From the IMG/VR virus record IMGVR_UViG_3300028832_002797: 64,000 bases of DNA; one strand, given 5' to 3'. The translations under genes were made by a program, and so were the position numbers. The notes beneath the pieces are model-generated. The model ran no database searches. It saw only the letters and a program-made list of their open reading frames with translations, and had not been told where the DNA came from. Below are positions 4,643 to 47,432 of this stretch, piece after piece; position 1 is the first letter of the stretch; the number at the start of each line of letters is the position of its first letter. The stretch is from a virus (Duplodnaviria; Heunggongvirae; Uroviricota; Caudoviricetes).

Positions 4643-5719
4643 CTAACTGAAAAACTCGAACATTGTCGGTCGTTCCAAATTAATTTCTTCCTTCGGACCT
4701 AACCAACCAGCGATTCTGAACATCGTATCGAAAAGCTGACAGAAAGATTTTCTGAATGCGGTTTCATAGTCAATCTCAAAGTATTTATTAAATTCTTGCG
4801 GCCAAGATTCGAGATATGCGACTGCTTCAATCGGCGAAGTTTTTCCGTCCATATCCTTGGCTACAATCTTCTGAGATGGCTTTACATATACATATCGTAA
4901 TTTGGAATTATTACGAATCGGGTTATATTTCAACCTGTCCTTAGTAACGATATAGTTGTAGATAATCGAAATCTTTGCACCGAAAATGAGACCAGTCGGA
5001 AGAATCAAACCGTGGTCCATGTAATAGTCCATGAGAGTCTCGTATTTCATATCGAACGGCGTCGTATTCATCGCACTTTCAGAATACAGCTCTCTGAATT
5101 TGTCCATGGCGATTGTCGTATATTTCGTATAGTTCTTGATACCGATAACCGACGAAATAACGTTCAAATCCGAGCTCTTAAACTGGTCATAAACCTTGTA
5201 GATATATTCCTGTGCTTCGTCCTTACCGATACCGTCGCAGATTTTGAATGCGAGTTCTTCAGCAGCCGTTTTACAGAAGTCTGGCATAGTCGATTTCTTA
5301 ATAGGAACGCCCATAATTTTATGCTTCATGTGGTCAAGCGGATATAACGAACCTTCACTATCGATAATATTACCGATATACAACTTCTTTGCAAAACAGA
5401 ACATGTTTTTGAAGATGTTTTCACGGTTGAAATTAATCTTATTGACCGTATGGAACTGCTTGGCTCGAATGTCGAGAATCTTATCGAAGAAACGCTGGAA
5501 CACGTCCTCGCATTTCTGGAAATAGCTTCGATATTCCTCTTCGTTCGTAATCTGCAAACCAGATTCCATCAAACGCTTCTTTAGCTCAATAATCGAAAAA
5601 TAAACTGAGTCCGTATCATTATGGACCGCACAGACATCGCGACCTTTCACGACAAGAGGACTCATGTCGTTCATTTGAAATTTATCAATCTTTACATCTA
5701 ATGCTTTCTTAAATTCCAT
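4643..5719 (-). CDS. Family B DNA polymerase, C-terminal subunit (motif C region, HNDTDSVYF)
   Basis: YGDTDS-like motif C (VHNDTDSVY). ATG at 5717-5719 lies 1 nt after the TAA (5721-5723) of the upstream pol fragment. The track ORF extends upstream in a non-coding overlap. Confidence 0.75.
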   Translation of the reverse strand: MEFKKALDVKIDKFQMNDMSPLVVKGRDVCAVHNDTDSVYFSIIELKKRLMESGLQITNEEEYRSYFQKCEDVFQRFFDKILDIRAKQFHTVNKINFNRENIFKNMFCFAKKLYIGNIIDSEGSLYPLDHMKHKIMGVPIKKSTMPDFCKTAAEELAFKICDGIGKDEAQEYIYKVYDQFKSSDLNVISSVIGIKNYTKYTTIAMDKFRELYSESAMNTTPFDMKYETLMDYYMDHGLILPTGLIFGAKISIIYNYIVTKDRLKYNPIRNNSKLRYVYVKPSQKIVAKDMDGKTSPIEAVAYLESWPQEFNKYFEIDYETAFRKSFCQLFDTMFRIAGWLGPKEEINLERPTMFEFFS

Positions 5720-5720
5720 C

Positions 5721-7928
5721 TTAATCCTCAATACCGAGAAGGTCAGTGTCCTTGTTGAATTCGTAAGCGTAGATTTCCATTTCGTCATTACCGCGAAGAA
5801 CAGTAATCTTTTCATAGAAATCGTACTTATATGTCTTTTCTTCCGTAATGATGGAAACTGTCGAGAATTCCTTGACAACATCCTTGAGCAAGAACGGAGA
5901 AACATAGTATTCATTGAGATTCTTGGTCAACCAGTCTCTCAAAGTGACACGAGCGCAACGGCAAATAGCACGAGCAACGTCAGGGTCATACAAAGCGAAA
6001 CTGTTAGCAAGAGAAACACCGTAAACCGAGTTAATGATGAGCTTCTTGGTCATCTGTCGGTTATGATACAAATGTTCACCAGCTTTATCGCCTTTCTTGT
6101 GACATTCCTTTTCCTTATTCTTATATACCTTACGTTCTGCAAACACCTGCTTGACAACGTTCGGAAGAATACCGTCATCACGGTTATAGAAACCAAGTTC
6201 TGCAACGTCTGTCGGAATAACCTCACCGGATTCAATCTGTTCCTTAGTCGGATGAACAACCTTCAATTCCGGAGAGATATGGAATTCCATAATGTGGTGC
6301 GGATATGACGAGGTAATATCGAAAGACATACAATCGTCATGTCGACCAGGGAAGTCATAACAATAACCTGCCTTTACCTGGAATTCTGGGAACGGATGAG
6401 GATCCTTCTTATACGCTTCCCATGCGGCAAGGAAATCCTTTTCAGTTTTCCAATGCTCGAATCTTCTCTGTCCGACAAGTCGCTTGATTGTATCGTAATC
6501 ATACTTTCCTTCAGACTGAGCTTCCTTATAAGCATCATAGAAAACACGGAACTTACAATAGTCCTTATAACGCTTTGCACCCGGTTCCCATTCAGTGTTC
6601 TGGAAATAATCGTTTCCGTCCTTATCTTTTACGATATAGCAACGTTCATTTCTCCACCAGTCAACATGATGGTCTTCACGGTCATTCAAAACACGGTTGG
6701 TCTTATGTAAGAATTTTAAGATATAACCAGTAGTCGTCGGAACCTTCTGTTCAACCTTATCGAGAGTAACAAGGCAATCGAATGCATATTCAATAATAAG
6801 GTCGAAGAGCTTGTTTTTCTTTTCAAGGTCGACCATAATCATAACGTCCTTTCTGTTATACTTCAGGAAGTTATTACCGTCAATCTTGTAGGTTTCAGAA
6901 ATTGCACCGCTATATTCCAACTTTTGGTCATTTAATTCGAGGTTGGCAACATAGTTAAGGGAATACGAAGAAAGAGGCGGATGAGATCCGAAGACTTCGT
7001 ACAGTTTCATGTAGTCAAGAGAATACAAACCAGGAATCGTGTACTTCGTTCCAAGTTCAACGTTTTCCATCTTGCGGTCAGTAATCTTTTCAGCCACAGG
7101 CATCATGCCGAGAGGAGACAGATTCTTTTCCCATTCAACCTTGATGTCGTATTTCTCTCTGAGAACTTCACAACGACGCATGATATAGGGAATATCGTAT
7201 GCGAGCGAGTTCCAACCTGTAATGATGTCAAAATGATTATTGGCGAACCACTTAATCCATTCACGGATAAGTACCATTTCTGACTTACAGTACGTATAAT
7301 TCGGTAAATCCTTCGGGTCATCTGTATATCTGATTGTGCTCCAGGTATAAGATTGACCAGTCTTTGTAGAATAACAAGTAATGGCGTTAATTGGCCACTG
7401 AGCTATTTCAGGAGACGGGAAGTCATATGAAACAAAACAGCTATCATCGTAGGGAAGCCATTTCTGAACTTCAATGTCATAAACAAAATACTTGTCATGG
7501 TCAAACTTCATATCGAAATCAATAAGACTGATGTCGAGAGTTTTCTTGGTTTTCTTTTCGCAGACCTTAATCAATGTTTCGTCATAATACTTACTTCCTG
7601 ACGCAACTTCAATATCGAAGAAACAGATATTCCATTTGCTCATATCAACTTGGAGTTCTTCGTTATCGTATAGTTGGTGCATGTATTTGACTTCTGGACG
7701 CAAATTACCTTCACATACGCCTCTAAGACCCATAAGGGAATTACGGTCACTATAATCGAACCGTATCATCGGTGTCTTGTGAATGTCAGTAATATTGCTC
7801 TTCTTTGAAGGATCCGGCCTGTAGCACCAGTTATGAAATTCAACTTCTTTAAAATCAATATCATCTTGGGCTTTAAAATAGAGCTTTTGTTTTTTAAAGT
7901 CCCAGTAACAATTCTTAAATCCACTCAT
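5721..7928 (-). CDS. Family B DNA polymerase, N-terminal subunit (3'-5' exonuclease + palm motifs A and B)
   Basis: Exo I (FFDIEV) and Exo II (WNSLAYDIPYI) motifs. Motif A DITSSYPHHI and motif B KLIINSVYGV. Ends before motif C. Confidence 0.85.
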   Translation of the reverse strand: MSGFKNCYWDFKKQKLYFKAQDDIDFKEVEFHNWCYRPDPSKKSNITDIHKTPMIRFDYSDRNSLMGLRGVCEGNLRPEVKYMHQLYDNEELQVDMSKWNICFFDIEVASGSKYYDETLIKVCEKKTKKTLDISLIDFDMKFDHDKYFVYDIEVQKWLPYDDSCFVSYDFPSPEIAQWPINAITCYSTKTGQSYTWSTIRYTDDPKDLPNYTYCKSEMVLIREWIKWFANNHFDIITGWNSLAYDIPYIMRRCEVLREKYDIKVEWEKNLSPLGMMPVAEKITDRKMENVELGTKYTIPGLYSLDYMKLYEVFGSHPPLSSYSLNYVANLELNDQKLEYSGAISETYKIDGNNFLKYNRKDVMIMVDLEKKNKLFDLIIEYAFDCLVTLDKVEQKVPTTTGYILKFLHKTNRVLNDREDHHVDWWRNERCYIVKDKDGNDYFQNTEWEPGAKRYKDYCKFRVFYDAYKEAQSEGKYDYDTIKRLVGQRRFEHWKTEKDFLAAWEAYKKDPHPFPEFQVKAGYCYDFPGRHDDCMSFDITSSYPHHIMEFHISPELKVVHPTKEQIESGEVIPTDVAELGFYNRDDGILPNVVKQVFAERKVYKNKEKECHKKGDKAGEHLYHNRQMTKKLIINSVYGVSLANSFALYDPDVARAICRCARVTLRDWLTKNLNEYYVSPFLLKDVVKEFSTVSIITEEKTYKYDFYEKITVLRGNDEMEIYAYEFNKDTDLLGIED

Positions 7929-7934
7929 AGTATC

Positions 7935-7948
7935 AAATATAGAAAAAA
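7935..7948 (-). promoter_or_regulatory. Promoter-like box (minus-strand TTTTTTCTATATTTG) 6-7 nt upstream of the polB ATG
   Basis: Plus strand reads aaatatagaaaaaa. ATG at 7926-7928, a leaderless-type spacing. Confidence 0.45.
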
Positions 7949-7979
7949 CCTACAAACGATTAAGTTTGTAGGTCTTTTT
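7949..7979. terminator. Bidirectional hairpin terminator (cctacaaac-gattaa-gtttgtagg) flanked by A6/T5 runs
   Basis: 9-bp perfect stem with T-runs on both strands. Lies between the 7997..8203 gene and polB. Confidence 0.55.
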
Positions 7980-7996
7980 GTTCCAAATTTCTTCAA

Positions 7997-8203
7997 TTAT
8001 GCATTCAACGTCTTGATGAAGGTCTGCATGTCCTGGAAAGCCTGGAGGTAACCAGCCTTGAATTCAGCCTTTTCAGCCGGAACTTCGGTCTTGCGGACTT
8101 CATCGATCTTTGCGACCACGATTTGCTTGATTGCACGGAGGTTGTTAACAACAACGTCTTCGGCGTCAACTGCATCATTAAAGTTATTAGCATTAGTCAT
8201 CAT
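7997..8203 (-). CDS. hypothetical small protein (68 aa)
   Basis: ORF track. Confidence 0.35.
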   Translation of the reverse strand: MMTNANNFNDAVDAEDVVVNNLRAIKQIVVAKIDEVRKTEVPAEKAEFKAGYLQAFQDMQTFIKTLNA

Positions 8204-8216
8204 AATTTGTTTTCCT

Positions 8217-8447
8217 TTATCGTTTAGTTAACCATATGTTATAGGTTCTTGTGTCTTCTTTTTGTGTCTTCGCATTGTCAGGAATCATAGATTGATATTC
8301 TTCCGGAATTTCAGAAAAATCTGGAGCTTGCTCATACTGTTTCCACACATTGGTATTGGCAATAGCATTGGCTATTTCCGGCATACCTTCTGTAGCTTCT
8401 TCAATATCAAGCGGAAGTCTTCTCTTTCTGCTGTACTCTGGTATCAT
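8217..8447 (-). CDS. hypothetical acidic protein (76 aa)
   Basis: ORF track. Overlaps the infA-like 3' end by about 40 nt. Confidence 0.3.
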   Translation of the reverse strand: MIPEYSRKRRLPLDIEEATEGMPEIANAIANTNVWKQYEQAPDFSEIPEEYQSMIPDNAKTQKEDTRTYNIWLTKR

Positions 8448-8697
8448 ATCTAAATTTTATCCTTCCTTTACTCATATCATAGATGTTAACACCGATGAGG
8501 CATTTATCACCTGGAGTGATATGAATATGCTTAACACGAATTTTACCAGATATTGTGCAGAGCACTCTCTGGCCGTTTTCGAGTTCTACGTCAAACATCG
8601 CATTAGGGCGGGCTTCTAAAACCGTGCCGATAACATCGACTTCTGACAAGTTTTGTTTTTCTGCTTTATCTTTTTTATTAGTTTTAATTTTTTTCAT
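8407..8697 (-). CDS. infA: Translation initiation factor IF-1 homolog (S1-like OB fold) with lysine-rich N-terminal extension
   Basis: VIGTVLEARPNAMFDVELENGQRVLCTISGKIRVKHIHITPGDKCLIGVNIYDMSKGRIKFRY aligns closely with bacterial IF-1 (GTV.E.LPN.MF.VELENGH...ISGKMR...I..GD.V....PYDL.KGRI..R). ATG at 8695-8697 lies 1 nt after the upstream TAA. Confidence 0.8.
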   Translation of the reverse strand: MKKIKTNKKDKAEKQNLSEVDVIGTVLEARPNAMFDVELENGQRVLCTISGKIRVKHIHITPGDKCLIGVNIYDMSKGRIKFRYDTRVQQKEKTSA

Positions 8698-8698
8698 G

Positions 8699-9718
8699 TT
8701 AATTCGCAGCTGTTTCAAGCTCAGCATTAGTGGTCGGGTTTTCTTCAGCAGATGGCATTTCAAAAGTTGATTCTCCGTCAGCAACGACTTCGAATTCTTC
8801 TACAGGTTCATTAGATTCTTCAATTTTTTGCTGTGCTTCTTTCTTTTCTTCAGATAGCTTTTTAATTCTTTCACTATTGGCCTGCACCAAAGCAAGGCGT
8901 TTAGCACCTTCGTCAACCTGGACGGAGGATTGCTTTGTAAGCGTGCTTCCCAATTCACTCAGATCTGCGGTTTCGAGCATTGCATCGAGGTTAGCTTTCT
9001 TTTGTTTCAAGATTTCTTCTTCAGATTTCGCAGGTTCTGCTTTTTTAACAACTCTGGGCTTCGTTACTTGTGGTGCTGCAGCAGCTTCAGCAACTTTTTC
9101 AGTTTTTGCTACTACGGGCTTTTTCTTAACAACAGTCTTCTTTACAGGAGCCGGAGGAGCTACAACTACTTCCGGTTCTTTTTCTTTGTAAATAATCTTC
9201 GGAGCTGGCGGAGGGGGATTCATGATTTCATCACACATGTCCAACATACATTCATTGAGTTTCTCAAGGCCAGTCATTCCATATTTAAAAAACATTGCAG
9301 TCATTTTCTCTTTCATTTCGTCAATAAGAGAAAAAGCTTCAGAAAAAGCGGGGTTATTAATATAACCCGCACTTTCTACAATACTTTGTGGCTTTTTAGT
9401 GCGTCTGCGAACAGGCGCAGGTTCTACATAATTATCATCGTCAAAATCGGGTTCAGCAGGCATAGGAGCAGGACGCGGCGCCGGAGTAGGAGCCGGAGCT
9501 GGTGCCGGACGTGGAGCTGGCCTCGGTGAAGGACGCTGCGTACGGTGAGCTTCGTTAATCTCCGGAACTTCGTCATTATAAAAATCATCATCCTCTAGCT
9601 CATCGACAGAAACTGTCTGAGCTGTAGACTTGTAATTCTTATATGCCTCGAGTTGCTGTTCTTCGGTATAAGACGGGTCGTTTTTATGTAGAAAGCTTAA
9701 AAAATCACCTTTACTCAT
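8699..9718 (-). CDS. proline/alanine-rich protein (RPSPRPAPRPAPAPAPTPAPRPAP; PPPPAPK...) with coiled-coil C-terminus
   Basis: ORF track with verified ATG. Low-complexity Pro-rich segments. Function unknown; scaffold or linker protein is possible. Confidence 0.5.
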   Translation of the reverse strand: MSKGDFLSFLHKNDPSYTEEQQLEAYKNYKSTAQTVSVDELEDDDFYNDEVPEINEAHRTQRPSPRPAPRPAPAPAPTPAPRPAPMPAEPDFDDDNYVEPAPVRRRTKKPQSIVESAGYINNPAFSEAFSLIDEMKEKMTAMFFKYGMTGLEKLNECMLDMCDEIMNPPPPAPKIIYKEKEPEVVVAPPAPVKKTVVKKKPVVAKTEKVAEAAAAPQVTKPRVVKKAEPAKSEEEILKQKKANLDAMLETADLSELGSTLTKQSSVQVDEGAKRLALVQANSERIKKLSEEKKEAQQKIEESNEPVEEFEVVADGESTFEMPSAEENPTTNAELETAAN

Positions 9719-9747
9719 AATTATACCTTATTTATAGAAGTTATTTT

Positions 9748-9760
9748 CAAAATATAGAAA
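9748..9760 (-). promoter_or_regulatory. Promoter-like box (minus-strand TTTCTATATTTTG) between clpP and the Pro-rich gene
   Basis: Plus strand reads caaaatatagaaa. A TATAAATA-like element is also present about 15 nt closer to the ATG. Confidence 0.35.
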
Positions 9761-9763
9761 TTT

Positions 9764-10510
9764 TTAAACTAACTTCGTCTTTACCTTGTCAATTAATCCG
9801 ATTTTCTTTGCTTCATTTGCCGACATGAAGTTATCAAACGAAGTAAGTTCACGGAGTTCTTCAGTAGTCTTTCCAGTCTGCTTCTTGAACACGCGATTCA
9901 TGCTATCGGTCCAGTTCTGTAATTCCTTCTGGAGAATGCTAACGTCCTTGAGACGACCAGCGAAACCATCGGCGACAATACCAGCCTGATGAATCATGAT
10001 ACGAGAAGACGGGAAAGCATAACGATGGCCAGGAGTTCCATTAGCGAGAATAACAGAAGCCATACTCGAGCAAGAACCACATGCAATCGTATTGATAATA
10101 ATACCCTTACGCTTCAGTTCGTCCATGACATCGATGAGTGCGAAACCGGCGTCGCAATCACCACCAGGAGAAGAAAGGTAAATGGTAACAGGTTCCTTCA
10201 GGTCATCATCGTAGAATGAGAGACGCTGGATAGTGCGGATAGCGATACTCCAGTCAATAGCGCCCGTAATCCAAATACAACGCTTGACTTCGAAGTAATT
10301 CTGACGCATAATTTCGAAATAACCACCCATTTCGCCAAGAGGAATTCCCTGTTGCTCAGGTTCTTCCGGCTGGCCTTCAGGAGGAACAGCATTAGGATTT
10401 TCCGGACCTACTGGAGGCATTTGACCCGGATTCGGAGTAACCATCGGAGCAATTGGAGCTTCTACTGGCTTATTATCAGATTTCTTCTTTACGATGCGCT
10501 TTAAAGACAT
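9764..10510 (-). CDS. clpP: ClpP-family serine protease with Pro-rich N-terminal extension
   Basis: YLSSPGGDCDAGFALIDVM...GSCSSMASVIL...RIMIHQ matches the ClpP catalytic Ser (GxSxMAS) and His (IHQ) regions. Confidence 0.8.
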   Translation of the reverse strand: MSLKRIVKKKSDNKPVEAPIAPMVTPNPGQMPPVGPENPNAVPPEGQPEEPEQQGIPLGEMGGYFEIMRQNYFEVKRCIWITGAIDWSIAIRTIQRLSFYDDDLKEPVTIYLSSPGGDCDAGFALIDVMDELKRKGIIINTIACGSCSSMASVILANGTPGHRYAFPSSRIMIHQAGIVADGFAGRLKDVSILQKELQNWTDSMNRVFKKQTGKTTEELRELTSFDNFMSANEAKKIGLIDKVKTKLV

Positions 10511-11257: not shown

Positions 11258-11692
11258 TTACTCAACGATTTCAAGTTCTTCCGGGTCTGTCATCGGTTCT
11301 GGGCCATTCGACGGTTGGGTATTCTCGAGATACTTACCAGCATAGAGCACAGCAGTTTCACCTTGAATAGTATCAACCATGTCCTGAATTCCAGCCATGA
11401 AGGCGGACTCATTAGACTCTTCAGTTTTTTCCTCGACATTGATATTCATCTTGTCGTAGGCTTCGAACACAGCCTTATTAATCTTGTCCGCAAGCGGCTT
11501 CTTAATAGGCTGAACGAAACACAGCTCACGCTTGTTATTCACATTCTTAGGGTAAATAACGTAACGCTTGCCGTAGTAGTCCATTAATGTAAGGCCAGTA
11601 AGCAGAAGTTCGTGGTCAAGAATAACCTGACACTTGCCGAGCTTTCCGTACTTTACATTGTAGGGATAAATTTTGACTTTTGTTACTTCCAT
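11258..11692 (-). CDS. hypothetical protein (start moved to ATG 11690-11692; track start is TTG)
   Basis: ATG lies 1 nt after the upstream TAA (11694-11696). Confidence 0.4.
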   Translation of the reverse strand: MEVTKVKIYPYNVKYGKLGKCQVILDHELLLTGLTLMDYYGKRYVIYPKNVNNKRELCFVQPIKKPLADKINKAVFEAYDKMNINVEEKTEESNESAFMAGIQDMVDTIQGETAVLYAGKYLENTQPSNGPEPMTDPEELEIVE

Positions 11693-11693: not shown

Positions 11694-12149
11694 TTACGGT
11701 AAATCCTTTCTGTACTCTTCGAGAGCTTCAATATCCTTTGTAACCTTCATCAGGTCGATTTCCTTTGCCACAGCAATGGAAATGATGTCATTGAAGATAC
11801 TCTGCACAGCAGGAACAGGTTCAACATCTGCGACTTTAATCATACGTTCTACGACTTCTGCAGAAGGAACCGGATGTTCATTAGTTACATTGCCACTTCC
11901 ATCAACAAAATTCTTGAGGAAGTCATTAAGATAGAAAATAGCCTTTCCCAAATCCTGATACGGTGTTGCATGTTCAGGATCGGTCTTTACCTTATCAAGG
12001 TAGCGCATGGAATACTTCCATACATTTGCACAGTCACAATCAAGATAGCGTGTAATAGTAATAGTTTCAATTCCAGATGCGTTATTACAGTAATGATCAG
12101 GGTGATTAACGGCTCGGTCAATTTTTTTAAGCTGTTCTTCAGTATGCAT
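11694..12149 (-). CDS. hypothetical protein (151 aa; HPDHY motif, possibly DUF3310-like)
   Basis: ORF track. Weak family resemblance only. Confidence 0.4.
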   Translation of the reverse strand: MHTEEQLKKIDRAVNHPDHYCNNASGIETITITRYLDCDCANVWKYSMRYLDKVKTDPEHATPYQDLGKAIFYLNDFLKNFVDGSGNVTNEHPVPSAEVVERMIKVADVEPVPAVQSIFNDIISIAVAKEIDLMKVTKDIEALEEYRKDLP

Positions 12150-12165: not shown

Positions 12166-12579
12166 TTATTTAAATGTTTCGTTAGAGTTCAATGCTTTTA
12201 AAATATTTTCTTGCAATTCATGAGACTTATTGGCATGGTCTGTCAACTTCTTATCGAAAGCCCGGTCTTCTCGAATTTCTTTATTACGAGCAAGAGCCTG
12301 ACTGATACGAATAGGAAGAAATACTGCCATAAAATAACCGAACGCCATCGCAATGTATGGAACGATGTCGGTCATAAAATACATTATTCCTTTCTTAAGT
12401 GTATCTCCAAACACGCCAAATGAGCCTAAAACTAGGGTATAAACCACGGCACTAATAAGAGAACCGATAATGAGCTTCTTATTGGCCTTAATTTTAGACC
12501 AAAATGCTTTCATTTTGGTCTGAAAACCCTTCATCTTAGCCTTGAAATTTGACTTATTTGTCTGCTTAGATGTCTTCAT
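12166..12579 (-). CDS. small membrane protein (basic N-terminus, 2-3 TM helices)
   Basis: Hydrophobic segments LIIGSLISAVVYTLVLGSFGVF and IVPYIAMAFGYFMAVFL. Confidence 0.45.
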   Translation of the reverse strand: MKTSKQTNKSNFKAKMKGFQTKMKAFWSKIKANKKLIIGSLISAVVYTLVLGSFGVFGDTLKKGIMYFMTDIVPYIAMAFGYFMAVFLPIRISQALARNKEIREDRAFDKKLTDHANKSHELQENILKALNSNETFK

Positions 12580-12895
12580 TGTCTTCCAAGATTACTTCCA
12601 CTGCCGAATCAGGAATCTGGTAATACTTAGTCTTAACGTAAGCACCCTTATCATTCTTCGCAGCGATGTTAAGTTCGATTGCACGCAAGTCCGTAAAGAT
12701 AATGCGGTCACCAACAGATACAACACATGGAATACGGGAATCCGTGACAGGATTGTACTTGCCTGGGCCAACGGCAACAACTTCGCCATAAACAAGCTTA
12801 CCCGAGCTATCAAGTTCCGGAATATAGATACCGCCAGCGGTCTTAGTGTCACCGTTACGGCGCTTTACAAGCACATAGTTATCATTCATCTTCAT
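12566..12895 (-). CDS. GroES-family co-chaperonin (copy 1; T4 gp31 analog)
   Basis: 109 aa. KTAGGIYIP...GEVVAVGPGK...VGDRIIF matches the GroES mobile-loop and roof regions. Confidence 0.65.
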   Translation of the reverse strand: MKMNDNYVLVKRRNGDTKTAGGIYIPELDSSGKLVYGEVVAVGPGKYNPVTDSRIPCVVSVGDRIIFTDLRAIELNIAAKNDKGAYVKTKYYQIPDSAVEVILEDNEDI

Positions 12896-12909: not shown

Positions 12910-13239
12910 TTACTTAATTTCTTCGTTATCGTCAAGAATGCAAGTACATTCGTTTTCTGGAACCTTAACAAGTTTGAGCTTAGATACGTTTCCGTTTTCG
13001 TCCTTGACAGAAACCGTAATTTCTGTAGCAACACCTGGATTATAAATCACACGGTCACCAACATTGAGGTTGATGGGCGCAATCTTATTGGTGTAAGGAT
13101 TGAATTTACCCGGACCAAGCTTTACGATGGTACCAAGGGCCATAGGAATCGTTCCAATTCGGGGAATAAATAAGCCTCCGACAGTCATTTTGTCGAAAGG
13201 TTCCTCTTTTACGAGTACGTTATTTTCTGTAGTTTTCAT
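12910..13239 (-). CDS. GroES-family co-chaperonin (copy 2, tandem paralog)
   Basis: 109 aa. MTVGGLFIP...GTIVKLGPGK...VGDRVIY. Same architecture as the neighbouring gene. Confidence 0.6.
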   Translation of the reverse strand: MKTTENNVLVKEEPFDKMTVGGLFIPRIGTIPMALGTIVKLGPGKFNPYTNKIAPINLNVGDRVIYNPGVATEITVSVKDENGNVSKLKLVKVPENECTCILDDNEEIK

Positions 13240-16926: not shown

Positions 16927-17172
16927 TTATGCGATTGTTTCCCAACTGATTGTAATCATCTTTGAATCTTCATCCATTCGCATGAACTTAAACTCAAATT
17001 CATTGAATTCGATGTCTTTTCGATTCAATGCTGGTAGTTTCACTTGGCTTTCGAGAATCGGCAAGCACTTTTCACGGAATCGAGTGATTTGGCGAGAAGC
17101 TCCTGGAGTTCCTTCAGCTTCGTCAACAATCGTACATTTCTTTGTTTTCTTATCAACTCTTACAATAACCAT
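16927..17172 (-). CDS. hypothetical protein (81 aa)
   Basis: ORF track. Confidence 0.35.
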   Translation of the reverse strand: MVIVRVDKKTKKCTIVDEAEGTPGASRQITRFREKCLPILESQVKLPALNRKDIEFNEFEFKFMRMDEDSKMITISWETIA

Positions 17173-17612
17173 CAGATTCTCCGTTTAATTTTGATTTCAT
17201 TTTCCTGGTCCACAAAATGTTCCTTCATGTATGCGACCTTATCAGCCGGTACATTGTGAACATTCTGGAATTCATTATCCATACGGTAAATCGTAACTTT
17301 AATGTCACGAGCTTCCGCTTCTCTCAAATACGGTTTCAAATCCTTACGGGTTACGAACGTATTTGCGACGATAACATACTGTGCACCTTCATCAAAAGCC
17401 CTAAATACTCTTTCAAAACAGTTTTTATGGGCATAATAAAGTTTACTAGTATGGAAAACGTATTCACCCTTATCATTATACCAATAATCATCAGCCTCTA
17501 CGTGCTCGACTTTGTAGCCTTGCTTTTCGAGGTCGATTTTTAATGTTTTAGCATAAGTAGACTTTCCGGAACCAGGTATTCCACGAACAACAATCAATGT
17601 CTGTGTATTCAT
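17172..17612 (-). CDS. Polynucleotide kinase-like P-loop kinase (T4 Pnk kinase-domain-like)
   Basis: VVRGIPGSGKSTYAKTL Walker A at residues 8-24. Size and layout resemble the T4 PseT kinase domain. Adjacent to the RNA ligase. Confidence 0.55.
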   Translation of the reverse strand: MNTQTLIVVRGIPGSGKSTYAKTLKIDLEKQGYKVEHVEADDYWYNDKGEYVFHTSKLYYAHKNCFERVFRAFDEGAQYVIVANTFVTRKDLKPYLREAEARDIKVTIYRMDNEFQNVHNVPADKVAYMKEHFVDQENEIKIKRRI

Positions 17613-17830: not shown

Positions 17831-19063
17831 TCATTCTTCAATAGTCCTTTGCACGTTAGAAGGTTCCAATTTTTTGTGTACAGCACGCTTTACAGAAACA
17901 AAGCTCTTGTCATTGCGAGAAATACACTTGATAGCCTGCATGATAGCCCCTACATCGCTTTTATAGTGTGCTGTGGCATATTCATAGCGAGAACGCTGGT
18001 CTTCAACAGCCTTCATGGTTTCACGAGCTTCAGAGACGACTACTTCAGTTAATTCTGCTACCCTTTTACGTACGCTTTCGGCGTATTCACGTAATTCCGG
18101 GAATTCTTCAGGAATATACAGAACTTCGTCGTCAATCGGCTTGTAACCCTTTGTCTTGTCGACATTGGCATGGAAGAAATCCTTTTCACAGTCGTAAGCT
18201 ACCCAGATATTCCATTCACTAAGGCATTCGAGCATTTTCGCAAGCTGGCACCATTCATCAGACTTTACCTTAATCTTGAAACCGTGTTCCGGGAAAGTGA
18301 TAACGTAACCTTCCTGGTTTGACGGAAGCTTGGTTGCGATATTTCGAGCTTCATTGAAAGTATCGAATTCGTAAATCTCCGCCATCTTGATTCCCCAAGC
18401 ATTAGCATAGACACGAAGTCCGGTAATGTGTTCTTCTTCGCCAGTTTCATTATCGATAACGGCGAGCAGCACAAGGCCTTCGAAGTCATAACGGATCGGA
18501 TGGAAATCCTCGTTATAAACGATTTCGAACAGGTAGGTCTTCTTCGGGTTCAAGAGTTCCTTTTTGATATGCTGGTCAAACCAACGCTGTCCCCAGATTG
18601 CCTGGTCAGAATCGAAAGAACCGCCGGTTTTCAACTGCCAATGTTTCAGATACGGATTCCAGAATACGATACCCAAAGACCCGTCAACCTTTTCCATAGT
18701 ATGGAAACGAATAGACTTCAGAATCTTTCGGATGTCAATCTTCTTCTGGTACTTCATGACCTTCTTTGCGAGTTCCGTCAGTTCGCCAGTCTCGCTGTCA
18801 ATCAGTTCACCGTAGTTGAAGAACTTATCGAACGGACGAGCTACGATTTCGCCGGTTTCAGAATCGAAAACGATACCACGGGAGGTGAGAGTAATCTCAT
18901 CCCAATCCGAAGTATATACTGTTTCTCGAGTATACTTGAAACCAACGAGCTTACCGTACCAGTGAGCTGTGATTCGTCCTTTTTCTGCCGCCTTCAAATA
19001 CTTACGAAGCTTGTACTTCTTCTGTATTTTCCTTAGCAGGTTCTTCAACTTTTCCGTTATCAT
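17831..19063 (-). CDS. rnlA: ATP-dependent RNA ligase, T4 Rnl1 (RnlA) family
   Basis: Nucleotidyltransferase motif I TMEKVDGSLG. Segments RGIVFDSETGEIVARPFDKFFN, FEIVYNE...LLAVIDNETGEE and EGYVITFPEHGFKIKVKSDEW are collinear with T4 Rnl1. Confidence 0.85.
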   Translation of the reverse strand: MITEKLKNLLRKIQKKYKLRKYLKAAEKGRITAHWYGKLVGFKYTRETVYTSDWDEITLTSRGIVFDSETGEIVARPFDKFFNYGELIDSETGELTELAKKVMKYQKKIDIRKILKSIRFHTMEKVDGSLGIVFWNPYLKHWQLKTGGSFDSDQAIWGQRWFDQHIKKELLNPKKTYLFEIVYNEDFHPIRYDFEGLVLLAVIDNETGEEEHITGLRVYANAWGIKMAEIYEFDTFNEARNIATKLPSNQEGYVITFPEHGFKIKVKSDEWCQLAKMLECLSEWNIWVAYDCEKDFFHANVDKTKGYKPIDDEVLYIPEEFPELREYAESVRKRVAELTEVVVSEARETMKAVEDQRSRYEYATAHYKSDVGAIMQAIKCISRNDKSFVSVKRAVHKKLEPSNVQRTIEE

Positions 19064-19277
19064 CTTTTTCTACCTTTTTCTTTGCACCGACCTTATGGGT
19101 CTTGTCAAGTTCCACATGTTCGATTTTACAACCAGCTTCATATCTTTCCTTAATGAAGCTTTCAAGTTCACCACGAACTTCAGTTTCCGTTTCACCGTAA
19201 CGCTTGAAAATAAGCGGTCCGGGAAGTCCATCGATAAAAACAATACACTTATAACGTTCTTTCATTACTTTTCCCAC
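19002..19277 (-). CDS. hypothetical small protein (91 aa)
   Basis: ORF track. Overlaps the rnlA start by about 60 nt in another frame. Confidence 0.3.
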   Translation of the reverse strand: MGKVMKERYKCIVFIDGLPGPLIFKRYGETETEVRGELESFIKERYEAGCKIEHVELDKTHKVGAKKKVEKDDNGKVEEPAKENTEEVQAS

Positions 19278-19933
19278 ATGGCATCGATTTTGACTAGTTC
19301 ATCAATGCTTACGGGACGATACCATGCTTCCCAGCTAACATTGTTTTCAATCAACCGCATATCGTCCTGGTCAATAACACTGGTTTTATTGAATTCGTGT
19401 GTATGACCATGCACGACATAATCGATTTGACGACCTTCGTTGAGGTACTGGTTCAGAGCCGTAGGATCTCCAGAAGTACCATCATGTTCGTTAAGTGTTT
19501 TATCGTAGTTAAAATGCTGGAACAGGTAATTCTTACCGTTATATGTCAAGAAAATATTGTCCTTTACCATTGTGATGTTCGGGAACATAGTGTCCTTGAC
19601 TGGATAGAGCTTCTTGAACAACTGATAGTCATGATTTCCACGAATCATATACATGTGCTTGAAATTCAACTTATTCGTGTAATAGTCACCGAAAACTTCG
19701 AGCAACTTGCTACCAGGAGTACCAAGAGTAAAGTCACCGAGAAAGATAACGGTATCATTCGGTGAAACGGTCGCATTCCACTGCTTAACAATGTCATCGT
19801 TCATTTCGTCGACGGTCACATACTTACGGGTACGGTCGAAATGATCTTCATAACTGGTACAAAGCTTTCGATGGTTAACGTGCAAGTCGCTGACGACAAA
19901 AATCTTTTCTGTATTAGGTAATTGTAAATCCAT
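19265..19933 (-). CDS. Calcineurin-like metallophosphoesterase
   Basis: Motifs VSDLHVNH, GDFTLG, GNHD and HGHTHE (DxH...GDxxD...GNH[DE]...GHxH). Start moved to ATG 19931-19933, because the track start lies inside the terminator hairpin. Confidence 0.65.
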   Translation of the reverse strand: MDLQLPNTEKIFVVSDLHVNHRKLCTSYEDHFDRTRKYVTVDEMNDDIVKQWNATVSPNDTVIFLGDFTLGTPGSKLLEVFGDYYTNKLNFKHMYMIRGNHDYQLFKKLYPVKDTMFPNITMVKDNIFLTYNGKNYLFQHFNYDKTLNEHDGTSGDPTALNQYLNEGRQIDYVVHGHTHEFNKTSVIDQDDMRLIENNVSWEAWYRPVSIDELVKIDAMWEK

Positions 19934-19953
19934 ATTGCAAATATAATAAAAAT

Positions 19954-19980
19954 AAGGCATTTTGTAAATGCCTTATTTTT
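19954..19980 (-). terminator. Hairpin aaggcatt-ttgtaa-atgcctt plus T-run
   Basis: Follows the stop of the small membrane ORF 19973..20143. Confidence 0.45.
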
Positions 19981-26425: not shown

Positions 26426-27298
26426 TTAAACGTTTTTAATAAAATCTAGTATATTTATACGAACAGTTTCATAATATTTATCCCAGATTCCCATTATTAA
26501 ATTAATATTTTCGTCACTTACATTATCCATTTTAAGTTTTTTCTTATATGTTGGACATGCATTAAATACGTTTTCAGCCCCAAGTATTGCTTCACATTCA
26601 TATTGTGGGCTTTTGCTAGAACGTGCAATCCAATCGCTGAGCATATATTCTGCCCATCCAAGTAAAGTTTGATTACCATGCTCAGTATTTGGAGTTTCCA
26701 TACCTGTACTAAAATTAAGAATTTTAATATCTTTATGTCCCTGTTTAAATTGACCTGCCAAAAGAATATCTGAACATTCATTAGCCCAGCAACCGCCATC
26801 CATATAAGATAAACCATCTTTTTCAATAACATCAAAATATGTTGGTGCTGCACAAGATGTTAAAACTGCAAATGCTTTATCAACATCTTTATCGCCTAAA
26901 TCCCATACTTTTTCAACAGATTTACCATTCATGCAAGTAGTTGGTATAAAAATAGGTTTTTTCCAATCTGAACATTTACCTTTCAAATTACTCTGTAATA
27001 ATTTTTTAAGATTAGAATTATCATATGTTGGGCAAGACGGTTTTAAACGCTTATACCATGAATACTTTGTAAAAATTTTCTTTAAGTTATTCTTATAAAG
27101 TTCAAATATATCATGTGCCGAATATCCTTCAGCTAAACAAGCAGCAATAATAGAACCTGTACTTGTTCCTGCAAAAGCAGAAGTTAAATCACAAAGTTTT
27201 TTACCAAGATCCTGTTCAAGACGACACATAAAAGCTAATGGGCCAATTCCAAGAGCACCACCGCCCGCAATACTAATACATAATTGTTTCTTTGCCAT
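26426..27298 (-). CDS. Patatin-like phospholipase
   Basis: Oxyanion GGGALG, nucleophile elbow GTSTGS (GxSxG) and catalytic MDGG (DGG) motifs in the canonical order. Confidence 0.75.
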   Translation of the reverse strand: MAKKQLCISIAGGGALGIGPLAFMCRLEQDLGKKLCDLTSAFAGTSTGSIIAACLAEGYSAHDIFELYKNNLKKIFTKYSWYKRLKPSCPTYDNSNLKKLLQSNLKGKCSDWKKPIFIPTTCMNGKSVEKVWDLGDKDVDKAFAVLTSCAAPTYFDVIEKDGLSYMDGGCWANECSDILLAGQFKQGHKDIKILNFSTGMETPNTEHGNQTLLGWAEYMLSDWIARSSKSPQYECEAILGAENVFNACPTYKKKLKMDNVSDENINLIMGIWDKYYETVRINILDFIKNV

Positions 27299-27340
27299 AT
27301 TTTCTCCTATACATTATTTATAAATAGGAGAAAACTTAGA

Positions 27341-27820
27341 TTATGCTAAATTTTTCAATATTGTGGTTTCAAGCTCAAAATCATTCATGGCCTTTTTATA
27401 TTCAAAACTATCTTCATGTCCAGAAAGTCTCGAATATGGAATTCCCATAGAATCCCAGATTCTATGCTGCATAACTATCCAGCCATTCTCAGCATAAAAA
27501 TCTTCCCATCTATTAAGAAATTCAATCAGATCATTTAGCTTAGATTTTGTCAGCCATTCCAACATTTTAAAGACATTATCTTTATGGTCAAAAATCATTA
27601 TTGCACATCTGTCTTTAATGGGCATAAGAGTACATGTGACCATAATTTCAAACTTTTCTTCATCTTCATACCAACTGAGTTCAACCTCAAAACGATTATC
27701 CTTATCACGAAGACAAATACTTTCATGGGTTTGAGAAGTATTTATACTCATGTAATAATTATCTGGTTTAATTCGAAGAATATAGTTTTGAAAATGTTGG
27801 AATGTATATGCGTCAGACAT
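27341..27820 (-). CDS. hypothetical protein (159 aa), AT-rich island
   Basis: ORF track. Confidence 0.4.
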   Translation of the reverse strand: MSDAYTFQHFQNYILRIKPDNYYMSINTSQTHESICLRDKDNRFEVELSWYEDEEKFEIMVTCTLMPIKDRCAIMIFDHKDNVFKMLEWLTKSKLNDLIEFLNRWEDFYAENGWIVMQHRIWDSMGIPYSRLSGHEDSFEYKKAMNDFELETTILKNLA

Positions 27821-28266
27821 TACTTCTTACCTAGAAGCTTATTAAAGGCATTTACGAGCTTACTGATTTCGTCTTCACCGTGTGTAGGTTCATAATCAAT
27901 ACTTGTATCATAAACAACACGACGTTGAACTGGTTCTTTCTTCATTTTTTCCTTATGTTCATTCATAAGTTTTTCAGCAAGTTCATATGACGGAATATAA
28001 AATCCAACATCCCATGAAGCATCTTTTGAACAAATATGAGGTTTAGATTCTTCTTTCCAAAGACAGCTATCACGGTATCTTAAGTATCGTTCCATATTAT
28101 AGGTCAAACGAAACCAAGTCTTCGAACCACTATTTATCTTACGGTATTCAACAACAAACCATGACGGATCTCGGTTTGCAATACTTGGAGAAACGTCAAA
28201 ATCGAACGTCGGATATTCAAATGTACCAAGTTCTATAATACGATATTCATAAAGTGATTTTTCCAT
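27820..28266 (-). CDS. hypothetical protein (148 aa)
   Basis: ORF track. Confidence 0.4.
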   Translation of the reverse strand: MEKSLYEYRIIELGTFEYPTFDFDVSPSIANRDPSWFVVEYRKINSGSKTWFRLTYNMERYLRYRDSCLWKEESKPHICSKDASWDVGFYIPSYELAEKLMNEHKEKMKKEPVQRRVVYDTSIDYEPTHGEDEISKLVNAFNKLLGKK

Positions 28267-29378
28267 TAGAATACATATCCTTCACGAGACTTACCAGTAG
28301 TAACATTACGAAGAATGGTTGGAATGATTTCACCAGCCTTCGTAATAATGACTTCATGACCAATTTCAATGCCCATATCTTCGAGCATATCGATATTGCA
28401 CATATTTGCACGCTGAACAGTAGTTCCACAGAGTTCCACAGGTTCAACGACAGCGACCGGAGTCAAATTACCATTCTTAATAGACCATTCAATATTGATG
28501 AGCTTGGTCTGAGCAAGAGAATACTTCGGCTTCAAAGCGATAGAGAATTCCGGGAGGTAATTCGTTTCAAGATCTTCATAATCGATAACAGAAGTCTTCC
28601 AAACAAGACCGTCAATCTGATAATCACGTTCTTCATGCCAAACCTGGTCCATAATGGCAACAGCCTTATCGCCAGTCATAGAGTCGAGGTCATAAATCTT
28701 GTATTCAACAACATCGAAACCCTGCTTGGTCATCCAGTCGAGCATATCGACCTGAGTATGAAATTTAGTGTTCTTCGGGCGAGCTTCATAAACCTTGATA
28801 TTGAGCTTGTCACAATCAGAACCATCGAGATGCTTCATAATACCAGAAGCGGCATTACGACAGTTCTTGTACTTCGGGAAGAACTGTTCCTTAACGGACT
28901 TGTAGAGCAAAATTTCACCACGGATAGTTCCGGTAAATTCCTTATCCTTAAGCTTCTTGACAGCACCTTTCATTTTGAGGATATTATCGGTAATGTCATC
29001 ACCGTATTCACCGTCACCGCGAGTAATGCCCTGAACGAGCTTACCGTCAACGTATTCAAGAGCAATAGAACAACCGTCAAGCTTCAAAGGAGCGACGACA
29101 AATTCATGACCGGCCATACGACACTTATTGAACCAGACGTTCATTTCTGGAGCAGTATTGGCCTTATTCTGAGAGCCCATGATAATGTTGTGCTTTACCT
29201 TTTCAAATCCTTCGGTATGATCCTTACCGACTTCCTTCAAAACGTCAGAATCAGGATAATTGGTTTTGAGTTCGTCCCAGAGAGCATCGAATTCGATGTC
29301 GCTCATGATCGGGGTGTCGGAGTTGTAGTAGGCGTCTTGTGCCTGGCGGATTTTAGCTTCAAGTTCGTTCTTATTCAT
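28266..29378 (-). CDS. ligA: NAD-dependent DNA ligase, N-terminal fragment (domain Ia + adenylation NTase + OB fold)
   Basis: Collinear with LigA residues about 1-400. KxDG motif PLKLDGCSIALEY, ITRGDGEYGDDIT, CRNAASG, DGLVWK and VIITKAGEIIP. Ends at the OB-fold boundary. ATG placed at 29376-29378, 6 nt after a promoter box. Confidence 0.85.
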   Translation of the reverse strand: MNKNELEAKIRQAQDAYYNSDTPIMSDIEFDALWDELKTNYPDSDVLKEVGKDHTEGFEKVKHNIIMGSQNKANTAPEMNVWFNKCRMAGHEFVVAPLKLDGCSIALEYVDGKLVQGITRGDGEYGDDITDNILKMKGAVKKLKDKEFTGTIRGEILLYKSVKEQFFPKYKNCRNAASGIMKHLDGSDCDKLNIKVYEARPKNTKFHTQVDMLDWMTKQGFDVVEYKIYDLDSMTGDKAVAIMDQVWHEERDYQIDGLVWKTSVIDYEDLETNYLPEFSIALKPKYSLAQTKLINIEWSIKNGNLTPVAVVEPVELCGTTVQRANMCNIDMLEDMGIEIGHEVIITKAGEIIPTILRNVTTGKSREGYVF

Positions 29379-29384
29379 GTTATA

Positions 29385-29397
29385 CAATATAGTAAAA
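29385..29397 (-). promoter_or_regulatory. Promoter-like box (minus-strand TTTTACTATATTG) 6 nt upstream of the ligA-N ATG
   Basis: Plus strand reads caatatagtaaaa. Followed upstream by hairpin gggccttgtcaaccc. Confidence 0.45.
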
Positions 29398-29654
29398 AAT
29401 ATGGGCCTTGTCAACCCATTTTTTCTAAAGCATTGAGAATACAAAAATCATGCTTAAATGCAAGATTTTCTTTTTCAACGTCCATATCGTATTTCTTGTC
29501 ACCCATTTGGATAATCTTATAAGAAGAATTTGCAATATGAGTATCGCTTTCTCGCGTCCACGAATACGTATAGCCACCAATCAGTTCTTGTTTAAGGGTT
29601 CTCCGTATAAGTCCATGAATATAACAATCACAGTCGTCTTTAACACCATCTTTG

Positions 29655-30053
29655 TCAATTATTGTTACTAGAATCATTCAGATTACACTCCATTTCGTAA
29701 ATATCTGTCTGGTTCAGAATATATAACTGAGCTTTCTTGAAATCCGTACCGTATTTCAGAAACATGTCATAAAGTACATCGGTAGTGACATCCATTCCTG
29801 GATGTTTATCATAAAACTCAATAATACTATAATTCGGTTTCATGCCGGTTTCGAGAATATACGACATTCCATAAACCCACAAGTCTTCGACACGCATTCC
29901 GTTTCGAATAATACTCTGTGCCCATTCATTACAACGTTTTTTATCTACATTACCAGTCCGGGCTTTCTCTTCGTAAAAACAATAACGCATTACGTCTGTT
30001 GCATAATCAGCCCAGTCGTCAACGTCTTTAAAATACTCTGAAAATGTCGACAT
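29655..30053 (-). CDS. hypothetical protein (132 aa)
   Basis: ORF track. Confidence 0.4.
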   Translation of the reverse strand: MSTFSEYFKDVDDWADYATDVMRYCFYEEKARTGNVDKKRCNEWAQSIIRNGMRVEDLWVYGMSYILETGMKPNYSIIEFYDKHPGMDVTTDVLYDMFLKYGTDFKKAQLYILNQTDIYEMECNLNDSSNNN

Positions 30054-30382
30054 TATAAAGACTCCAATGCTAATAAAGAATAAAAATAATTAGTAAATGA
30101 GGCACGTTGTTCTTTATCGTCTAATTTAAACTTCATTTTGTTTATTTCAACTGTACATGGAAATCTAACATGTACTGAATTAGACTGTTTTTTTGGCTTA
30201 GGTTTCTGTCCCCAAATTTTTTCGCCCTTACGCTTAGACGGAGGAGCTGGTGTATAACAGAAATTTTCTACGATATACAAATCCATCGCGATAGGTTCTC
30301 TACTATGCCAAAAATTATAGCCATAGTGAATACCCGTAACACTATATGTCGAACCGTTAACTTTAACTTTTACTATTGCCAT
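30053..30382 (-). CDS. hypothetical protein (start moved to ATG 30380-30382; the upstream part of the track ORF is the regulatory cassette)
   Basis: The cassette (promoter box + hairpin) would otherwise be translated. Confidence 0.4.
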   Translation of the reverse strand: MAIVKVKVNGSTYSVTGIHYGYNFWHSREPIAMDLYIVENFCYTPAPPSKRKGEKIWGQKPKPKKQSNSVHVRFPCTVEINKMKFKLDDKEQRASFTNYFYSLLALESL

Positions 30383-30386
30383 ACGT

Positions 30387-30421
30387 ATAATATAGAAAAA
30401 GGGTCGACTTATGTCAACCCT
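30387..30421 (-). repeat. 35-nt terminator-promoter cassette, copy 1 (ataatatagaaaaagggtcgacttatgtcaaccct)
   Basis: Identical 35-mer recurs at 31092..31126. Confidence 0.7.
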
Positions 30422-30638
30422 CATAATTCGGGTACATTCTGCAAGTGTCCCAAATATTTGCTTGTTCTTCATCTGACAAATAAATCATCTGGTCTTCTGA
30501 AACCGGCTTTCCTTCCAGTCGATTCATGAATGAATTACGCATTTTTAAAATAGCATCTTGTCGTTCATCAATGCCGTTGATACACATGTCGAATTTTTCA
30601 GCCAGCTGTTGTGCTTTGGATTTCATTTTTGTTCTCCA

Positions 30639-31067: not shown

Positions 31068-31091
31068 TATAAACTCCTTTTGTTTATGTTC

Positions 31092-31126
31092 ATAATATAG
31101 AAAAAGGGTCGACTTATGTCAACCCT
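31092..31126 (-). repeat. 35-nt terminator-promoter cassette, copy 2 (identical to 30387..30421)
   Basis: Exact repeat. Hairpin gggtcgac-ttat-gtcaaccc lies downstream of the flotillin stop. Confidence 0.7.
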
Positions 31127-47431: not shown

Positions 47432-47432
47432 T

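Follow-up and report, generated by a model that had tools for sequence, protein, structure and literature searches.

A phage-encoded IF-1 homologue with a conserved basic N-terminal tail in a family of huge gut- and rumen-type phages

Introduction

Genes for translation initiation factor IF-1 (also written IF1) have been described in several groups of very large phages. IF1 was reported in the Lak megaphages (10.1101/356790) and among the huge phages, in a study that also described basic N-terminal extensions on phage S21 (PMC7162821). In the Jug gut phages (360–402 kb), 'translation initiation factor 1A' is a single-copy core gene, CLP_protease and eIF-1a rank with the commonest Pfam domains, and ruminant relatives have been noted (PMC12880540). 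The PHROGs collection includes phrog_30201, an IF-1-like family whose function is listed as unknown, and a jumbo-phage review made no mention of IF1 or ClpP. Here we describe an IF-1 gene in the Caudoviricetes record IMGVR_UViG_3300028832_002797 of IMG/VR, of which a stretch of 64,000 nucleotides (nt) is hereafter called the window.

A viral IF-1, on which the original prediction for this locus centred, is thus not new in itself. Because phage IF-1 genes were already known, only the conserved tail of the protein and its fixed gene neighbourhood are new here. These are modest details and apparently undescribed; a literature search yielded no publication that describes a phage IF-1 extended at its N-terminus.

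Results

Identity of the phage IF-1

The IF-1 homologue (infA-like, 96 amino acids [aa]) is encoded on the minus strand at 8407–8697, stop codon included, with its ATG at 8697 and its stop codon at 8409–8407. It consists of a basic N-terminal tail of codons 1–19 (MKKIKTNKKDKAEKQNLSE, 8641–8697) with seven lysines, an OB-fold core of codons 20–84 (8446–8640), and a C-terminal extension (DTRVQQKEKTSA and the stop codon, 8407–8445) that overlaps the start of the next gene. The core is aligned end to end with positions 5–69 of TIGR00008, the infA equivalog model of NCBIfam (69 positions), at 79.7 bits (cut-off 61.15). Against PF01176, the protein scored 70 bits (cut-off 30.2, E 1.3e-19, positions 3–64 of 64). 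Archaeal and eukaryotic IF-1A models yielded 16–24 bits against cut-offs of 91–202, which places the phage protein below the thresholds for eIF1A and aIF1A (for example, 24.4 bits versus 108 for NF003082 and 18.1 versus 102.9 for TIGR00523). The Pfam comparison had been set beforehand as the check on this assignment; it returned IF-1, and neither a cold-shock (PF00313) nor an S1 (PF00575) domain was matched at E ≤ 0.1. The 12 best sequence matches in the PDB were bacterial IF-1 proteins, led by those of S. aureus, C. difficile, and S. pneumoniae, and the 13th was a weak match to eIF1A. Identity to the solved IF-1 structures was 40–53%.

The AlphaFold 2 (AF2) model of the protein is a five-stranded OB barrel (residues 19–83; strands 19–30, 34–39, 44–49, 65–71, and 77–83) with a predicted local distance difference test (pLDDT) of about 90. 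Model confidence was low for residues 1–18 and for the final 12 (pLDDT 54–65 in the tail and about 49 at the C-terminal end), and the barrel was followed by just a short low-confidence helix (86–93). Because of its low model confidence, the tail is probably disordered. When the model was compared with solved structures using Foldseek, the top 12 matches were bacterial IF-1 chains, including the 30S-bound chains 9h9h_X, 9fco_I, and 1hr0_W. The target-normalised template modelling (TM) score was 0.9–0.95 and the root-mean-square deviation 0.8–1.4 Å for the best matches. Chains of eIF1A and aIF1A ranked directly below, and cold-shock and S1 folds were absent among the 50 matches listed. The IF-1 OB-fold core recognised in the original prediction was thus borne out by both sequence and fold comparisons, and the assignment of the gene as a genuine IF-1 homologue with no cold-shock or S1 domain is, on these profiles and this model, secure.

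The residues that are invariant in IF-1 were kept (G51, K52, R54, D64, Y73, D74, G78, I80, and R83). In two alignments (A2 and A4), K52 and R54 of the GK.R motif, K77-G78-R79 of the KGR motif, and R83 were invariant or nearly so. Arg69 of IF-1 is essential for 30S binding, and Arg64 is an rRNA contact (PMC4611024); in our alignment their counterparts, R83 and K77/R79 within KGRI, respectively, were both retained. The phage protein is longer than usual, with 96 aa versus 70–75 and 19 residues ahead of the barrel versus about six. This is a deviation of form and gives no ground to exclude homology.

The gene is under strong purifying selection. Compared with the 98%-identical copy on a 411-kb contig (L004), 14 of 288 nucleotides differed. 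Twelve of these changes were synonymous and in third positions, one of them within the tail, and the only two non-synonymous changes (codons 93 and 95) both fell in the C-terminal extension. For the barrel, the non-synonymous rate (dN) was 0 and the synonymous rate (dS) 0.317; against more distant relatives, dN/dS was 0.08–0.2.

Function of the phage IF-1

The gene is, judging by its sequence, most likely a functional, phage-maintained paralogue of bacterial IF-1. With slightly better than even confidence, we propose that its product binds the A site of the host 30S subunit and acts as an initiation factor during infection. It would sit between h44 and uS12, as host IF-1 does, and would supplement or replace the host factor, so that initiation is kept going, probably tilted towards phage mRNAs.

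Several observations weigh against this proposal. The clade of the window carries substitutions in otherwise near-invariant positions: MFDVEL in place of the MF[R/K]VEL that is nearly invariant in bacterial IF-1, LCT in place of LAH, His in place of Tyr43/44 (N-Y-I-R), and NIYD in place of SPYD. The Asp that replaces Arg or Lys in the first of these motifs presumably lies in the loop entering the minor groove of h44. Because of these substitutions, the geometry or affinity of 30S binding could differ, and the phage protein, as far as its residues tell, has been kept as an IF-1 yet is no plain copy. Functional data on any phage IF-1 were not found in the searchable literature. A host was sought via homologues of a transporter of the major facilitator superfamily (MFS) encoded in the window and via cluster look-ups, and none was identified; the best named or solved IF-1 matches were from Bacillota by small margins, a weak host hint.

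The clade substitutions and the added basic tail would also fit an altered activity in the service of host shut-off, in which the phage IF-1 would bind the A site more tightly and act as a dominant-negative blocker or as a gate disfavouring host mRNAs. Since IF1 hinders inter-subunit bridges from forming (PMC13345285), a slowly dissociating factor would inhibit subunit joining. Phage mRNAs require the same ribosomes, however, no selectivity determinant is evident, and the strong purifying selection on canonical contact residues fits normal function at least equally well. We consider shut-off unlikely.

A slightly smaller chance is given to activity off the ribosome, with the OB fold and the tail acting on phage transcripts as an RNA chaperone or antiterminator that melts structure or prevents termination. 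Phadtare and colleagues reportedly described RNA-chaperone and antitermination activity of E. coli IF1 in 2007. A chaperone role had been proposed for this gene at the outset alongside a bias on initiation, and both are plausible for a viral IF-1. A basic disordered tail is a generic RNA-binding feature, and a SpoVG-like gene, nucleic-acid-binding by type, lies in the same block. On the other hand, the invariant residues are those of IF-1 proper, profile searches matched no cold-shock or S1 domain, and the fold comparison placed IF-1 first, followed by eIF1A and aIF1A. An initiation factor acting on the 30S subunit remains our preferred reading.

The phage family and its gene order

IMG/VR was scanned with an alignment of phage IF-1s, yielding at least 566 IF-1-like stretches, and the best 80 loci were surveyed. 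About 40 of these 80 form one family to which the IF-1 of the window belongs, with IF-1 identity down to 43%. It is a family of huge (~400 kb) gut- or rumen-type phages: near-identical copies of the locus were found on viral contigs in IMG/VR, the longest of them the 411-kb contig IMGVR_UViG_3300023371_000061, and a contig of 416 kb carries a 67%-identical IF-1. The conserved gene order on the approximately 40 family contigs is DUF3310, SpoVG, ClpP, a Pro-rich protein, IF-1, two small open reading frames (ORFs), and a family-B DNA polymerase (PolB).

In the window, the upstream end of this block is the DUF3310 gene (11694–12149, minus strand; PF11753 at 26.9 bits, above the cut-off of 24), followed by the SpoVG-like gene (11258–11692, minus strand; PF04026 at 28.7 bits, just under the cut-off of 29.6). 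From ClpP to PolB, every gene is on the minus strand. ClpP, a serine protease of 248 aa (9764–10510; PF00574 at 138 bits, E 3.7e-40), and the Pro-rich, mostly disordered protein of 339 aa (8699–9718) precede IF-1 directly, in the row originally described. Downstream lie an ORF of 76 aa (8217–8447), which had no family match in Pfam or PHROG and whose ATG at 8447 overlaps IF-1 codons 84–85, and an ORF of 68 aa (7997–8203), 88% identical in locus L011, which is the last gene before a terminator-like hairpin. Using tblastn, we found the 76-aa ORF downstream of IF-1 in most family loci that are long enough, and the 68-aa ORF adjoining it across the closer part of the family. DUF3310 and SpoVG were syntenic in most family loci reaching far enough. 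The loci L011 and L006, with IF-1 proteins 73% and 56% identical to that of the window, respectively, keep its gene order. Their sequence in detail is DUF3310, SpoVG, three small ORFs, ClpP, one or two extra ORFs, the Pro-rich gene, IF-1, and the 76-aa ORF; a 67-aa ORF and PolB follow in L011, and neither was detected in L006. The arrangement of ClpP, Pro-rich protein, and IF-1, which had been called unusual, is therefore the fixed gene order of a large huge-phage family.

Bacterial contamination was rejected as a source of the gene. The ribosomal neighbour rpmJ adjoined IF-1 in just one of the 80 viral loci (L050), queries with rpmJ, map, and rpsM had no match in the family loci, and the neighbours of IF-1 in the window are phage genes.

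The Ser-His-Asp triad of ClpP aligns to S111, H136, and D185 of the E. coli enzyme in the window, L011, L006, and Sinorhizobium phage Phosso. The window's ClpP scored below the cut-off for cellular ClpP (best NCBIfam model 129 bits versus 249) and below that for head-maturation proteases (NF045542, 68.5 bits versus 120), and its N-terminus, a Pro-rich extension of 70 aa, did not align to the N-terminal region of the E. coli protein. Although phrog_94 ('head maturation protease') matched at 112 bits, a prohead role is less likely because ClpP is set among replication genes; PolB, UvsX, ligase, and GroES-like genes are its neighbours. Reading ClpP and the Pro-rich protein as prohead protease and scaffold was accordingly dropped as a lead, with no structural genes nearby and NF045542 under its cut-off.

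The Pro-rich protein had no match in Pfam, NCBIfam, or PHROG, and its 15 homologues are all devoid of Pfam domains. A central helical hairpin is conserved (NPxxxEAxxLIDEMKxKMxxMFFKYGMTGLEKLNECMLDMCDEIMNPP), flanked by PAPRPAP-type repeats and Lys-rich linkers. The AF2 model has no compact fold (predicted TM score 0.17). The earlier description as a Pro/Ala-rich coiled-coil protein was roughly right, in that the mostly disordered model contains three helical modules (3–34, 123–166, and a long C-terminal helix, 233–301).

In every family locus of sufficient length, ClpP precedes IF-1 by 1.3–2.6 kb on the same strand, and its catalytic triad is intact. Together with the Pro-rich protein and IF-1, it might thus form one functional unit, which would not exclude the other readings. 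ClpP could remove a host factor such as host IF-1, which phage IF-1 would then replace, or the Pro-rich protein could serve as adaptor or substrate. In Phosso (L016, PV764938.1; 1844–3189), ClpP (PF00574, 92.9 bits; annotated 'ATPase domain-containing Clp family protein'), a MutT-like gene, and IF-1 are consecutive, so that ClpP is one or two genes from IF-1 there, as it is in L077, a relative of Phosso. In the Lak phages (L021/L022, ~5400–10200), IF-1 has a ClpP homologue about 4.5 kb upstream, and a weak PolB-like match is located between the two. At the approximately 40 of the best 80 loci outside the family, however, there was no ClpP within ±10 kb of IF-1 except in L077. One or two unrelated ORFs separate ClpP from the Pro-rich gene in relatives, a promoter-like motif stands between these genes in the window, and inheritance alone can explain synteny inside one family. 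As the proximity of ClpP and IF-1 occurs in three huge-phage groups and is not general, it is a lead and no evidence of joint function; we give a functional unit about one chance in ten, put loosely.

The N-terminal tail

The program-made ORF list opens the IF-1 frame at a TTG (8784) within the upstream gene; the sequence context supports the ATG at 8697 as the start instead. The segment ahead of the first β-strand of IF-1 then comprises 18–19 aa, about 13 more than the canonical MAKEDx N-terminus. The Lys-rich N-terminal extension noted originally is present at this length, not at the approximately 25 aa first given.

A basic tail of 15–23 aa was found in all distinct family variants except L048 (n = 21). 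Tails mostly begin with MKK and hold five to eight Lys or Arg residues, generally six to eight. In 21 of 21 variants examined, the tail frame was open from an in-frame ATG upstream, and the preceding gene had its stop codon −7 to +14 nt from that ATG. At the junction of tail and barrel, the motif EKxNxSE is kept as amino acids in many members, with codons changed synonymously (for example, KAEKQNLSE, KAEKLNTSE, KSEKANISE, and KGEKQNLSE). Because the upstream stop is within this distance of the tail ATG in every variant, we take the tail to be translated, and this comparison indicates that it is a real part of the protein.

Two features of the window's own tail speak against its translation. 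An internal TTG (Leu17, 8649) would yield a protein of canonical length starting MSEVDV..., and all seven Lys codons of the tail are AAA, compared with 42% AAA genome-wide, in a segment that is 65% A; AAA-only Lys codons would fit an A-rich leader too. That the TTG is the true start, behind an A-rich leader lacking a Shine–Dalgarno (SD) motif, is nevertheless very improbable given the in-frame ATG in every variant and the basic tail in all but L048, the junction motif maintained at the amino acid level, the upstream stop that always abuts the tail ATG, the lack in L011 of any in-frame ATG, GTG, or TTG from the tail ATG to the barrel, and the tail of L006, which is not A-rich (43% A) and contains AAG and CCG codons.

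The C-terminal extension (~12 aa) was found in the window's own sub-lineage alone and is not family-wide. Outside the family, viral IF-1s begin with the usual six MAKEE-type residues, with two independent exceptions that have basic tails: the Bacteroides phage DAC19 group (36 aa) and locus L089 (16 aa). A search of 1.84 billion representatives returned mostly over-long calls of ordinary IF-1 and few new tail-bearing relatives.

Expression signals

The TAA of the Pro-rich gene (8701–8699) is followed by one base (8698) and then by the IF-1 ATG, reading ...GCGAATTAA C ATGAAAAAAATT. The predicted start 1 nt after the upstream stop was thereby confirmed. An SD core (GGAG, GAGG, or AGGA) was present at −18 to −4 of 45 of the 91 window genes (49%), versus 7% of random 15-mers. 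Since half of the window genes have such a core, the phage uses SD initiation, and on the same grounds a Bacteroidia host is argued against, as a weak hint. No SD motif was found in this interval at the IF-1 gene, and 13 of the 21 family variants had no SD-like motif.

With a 1-nt gap, no SD motif, and a junction conserved in 21 of 21 variants, IF-1 has the features of a coupled gene pair, and its expression probably occurs by termination-reinitiation, coupled to that of the Pro-rich gene. However, about one third of the junctions in the window (based on crude gene calls) are ≤4 nt or overlapping, and because tight junctions are common in this genome, the coupling suggested at the outset need not mean anything specific.

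The motif CTATATT[TG] occurred at 17 sites in the window, compared with 7.4 expected, and 16 of these were on the coding strand. Copies were mostly located just upstream of genes, several with TTGACA 17–18 nt further upstream. Examples on the minus strand are at 1761–1768, 7935–7942, 9750–9757, 29385–29392, and 42060–42067. A T-run with this motif is probably the sigma-70-type early promoter of the phage, to judge from its placement. One such putative −10 motif (a T-run and CTATATTT, 9750–9757, minus strand) falls in the 45 nt that separate ClpP from the Pro-rich gene. A terminator scan detected an intrinsic-terminator-like hairpin with a 15-bp stem and a T-run (7943–7978, minus strand) between the 68-aa ORF and PolB, and CTATATTT recurs between this hairpin and the PolB start at 7928 (7935–7942, minus strand). 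The Pro-rich gene, IF-1, and the 76-aa and 68-aa ORFs would thus constitute one transcription unit ending at the hairpin, which may possibly also be read through from ClpP.

Content of the window

Functions in the window were assigned from Pfam and PHROG scans of about 55 ORFs. They included a split polymerase, UvsX, a split NAD-dependent ligase, RNase H, dUTPase, an Rnl1-type RNA ligase, an NMN-adenylyltransferase/NUDIX protein, a helicase, two GroES-like proteins, flotillin, LemA, patatin, an M16 peptidase, and an MFS transporter. These scans turned up no gene for capsid, portal, or terminase, and the 64 kb contain no tRNA gene. The window is an early or middle, non-structural replication and metabolism region of a huge phage. 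A 6.5-kb segment surrounding the locus had no megablast match among GenBank phages, and tblastn with PolB in GenBank phages recovered only T4-like cyanophage polymerases (gp43) at about 30% identity.

The Rfam RNA 'cow-rumen-2' (RF02947), a described and uncharacterised motif, was detected at 42933–43037 on the plus strand (108 bits versus a gathering threshold of 66). In this huge phage it is placed between genes, and nearly all genes run on the other strand. The public metagenome assembly GCA_001684375.1 contains the IF-1 gene in an identical copy, and a rumen or gut origin fits both this copy and the RNA.

Two enzymes of DNA replication are encoded in pieces, both on the minus strand. PolB is split into an ORF at 5721–7928, containing the exonuclease domain and the first part of the polymerase domain, and one at 4643–5914 (423 aa, no Pfam match) that matches positions 573–742 of phrog_262 DNA polymerase. 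In L011, an ORF of 355 aa with weak, sub-cut-off zinc-finger and DUF559 matches is located between the PolB parts. The NAD-dependent DNA ligase is apparently split into parts 26 kb apart (28266–29378 and 923–1780), one with adenylation and OB domains, the other with a BRCT domain and weak, sub-cut-off zinc-finger/helix-hairpin-helix matches.

Upstream of DUF3310, SpoVG, and ClpP are two adjacent GroES (Cpn10)-like genes (12566–12895 and 12910–13239, minus strand); L011 has a single protein of 322 aa with three Cpn10 stretches (1312–2280). GroES-like proteins, ClpP, and IF-1 together form a cluster of host-like proteostasis and translation genes. The T4 Rnl1-type RNA ligase (17831–19063), with an AAA_33 kinase-like gene (17172–17612) and a metallophosphatase (19265–19960) beside it on the minus strand, resembles a set for tRNA/RNA repair, even though tRNA genes are absent from the window. 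Membrane and proteolysis genes unusual for a phage are found within 26426–38833 on the minus strand: a patatin-like phospholipase (26426–27298), flotillin/SPFH (31152–32801), LemA (33584–34135), and an M16 peptidase (37736–38833).

The G+C content of 46000–56000 was low (0.27–0.36 versus about 0.40 elsewhere). This part contains a rare plus-strand gene (46117–47382), the OFA-type MFS transporter (47433–48578), a weak match to an Eco57I-like methylase (51836–52930), and a ResIII/DEAD helicase (52998–54605), and is possibly an acquired island. The transporter has many metagenomic homologues with 70–100% identity, on contigs of up to 431 kb.

Discussion

The comparisons above show the homology and fold of the protein, purifying selection on its gene, and the conservation of its tail, of the stop/start junction, and of the gene order. 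From these features of the locus we infer binding to the 30S subunit, the part played by the tail, translational coupling, the extent of the transcription unit, and any functional tie to ClpP. In the mechanism that we favour, the phage IF-1 would be made by termination-reinitiation after the Pro-rich gene, in a unit that seems to end at the putative terminator before PolB. Its Lys-rich tail would be a disordered arm that binds RNA and so raises the affinity of the protein for rRNA or mRNA, in the manner of the extensions of eIF1A/aIF1A and S21.

A far bolder extension, which we regard as quite improbable, is that the tail reaches the mRNA or P-site region and shifts the choice of start site or mRNA towards the phage (SD-less or coupled starts), while ClpP clears the host factor. 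If true, bacterial initiation would be taken over in a 'replace and destroy' manner, conserved in a family of ~400-kb gut phages.

Phage-borne translation factors are a main argument for the re-programming of host ribosomes by huge phages, and the family described here offers a clean test case: a small soluble protein under purifying selection, with a discrete and deletable conserved tail, and with tail-less comparators close at hand in L048, Lak, and Phosso. Should the tail alter 30S affinity or mRNA choice, it would show a virus tuning bacterial initiation. Should it have no such effect, the gene would simply be a spare copy, replenishing a host factor that is limiting over a long infection cycle.

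Compared with bacterial IF-1, the phage protein has the full-length OB core above model cut-offs, retains GK.R, YD, KGRI, and R83, and superposes at about 1 Å. It differs in being phage-encoded, with no rpmJ, map, or rpsM match in the family loci, and in its 13 additional basic N-terminal aa, approximately 12 additional C-terminal aa, and clade substitutions.

With the other IF-1-encoding huge phages (Lak, the LR7565xx genomes of Al-Shayeb et al. 2020, Phosso, and Jug), the window's family shares a genome of several hundred kb with host-like genes, and with Lak and Phosso also a ClpP gene near IF-1. The IF-1 of Lak, Phosso, and most other viruses is the canonical 72-aa form starting MAKE..., whereas the family adds the tail and the fixed Pro-rich gene. 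For the Jug phages, this likeness is taken from their published description.

The closest parallel in protein form is DAC19_4 of Bacteroides phage DAC19 (L015, MT074139.1; 627–932), annotated as 'hypothetical protein', which is an IF-1 homologue with its core after a basic, polar N-terminal extension of 36 aa (10 Lys/Arg). Phages DAC20, DAC22, DAC16, DAC23, and SJC03 have the same extended IF-1. DAC19 is a phage of another type (179 kb), and its tail has no sequence similarity to that of the window; no ClpP was found in the 626 bases upstream of the gene, where the record starts.

The factors eIF1A and aIF1A carry a basic N-terminal tail. They share with the phage IF-1 the OB superfamily and the A-site position on the small subunit, and differ from it in that the phage protein lacks the C-terminal helical domain and the acidic tail and scores far under their models. 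The likeness of the tails may be viewed as an analogy, not as demonstrated homology. Phage bS21 (Al-Shayeb et al. 2020; PMC9723584) is likewise an initiation-related host protein with a basic N-terminal extension proposed to bind RNA, but it is another protein, acting at another site of the ribosome.

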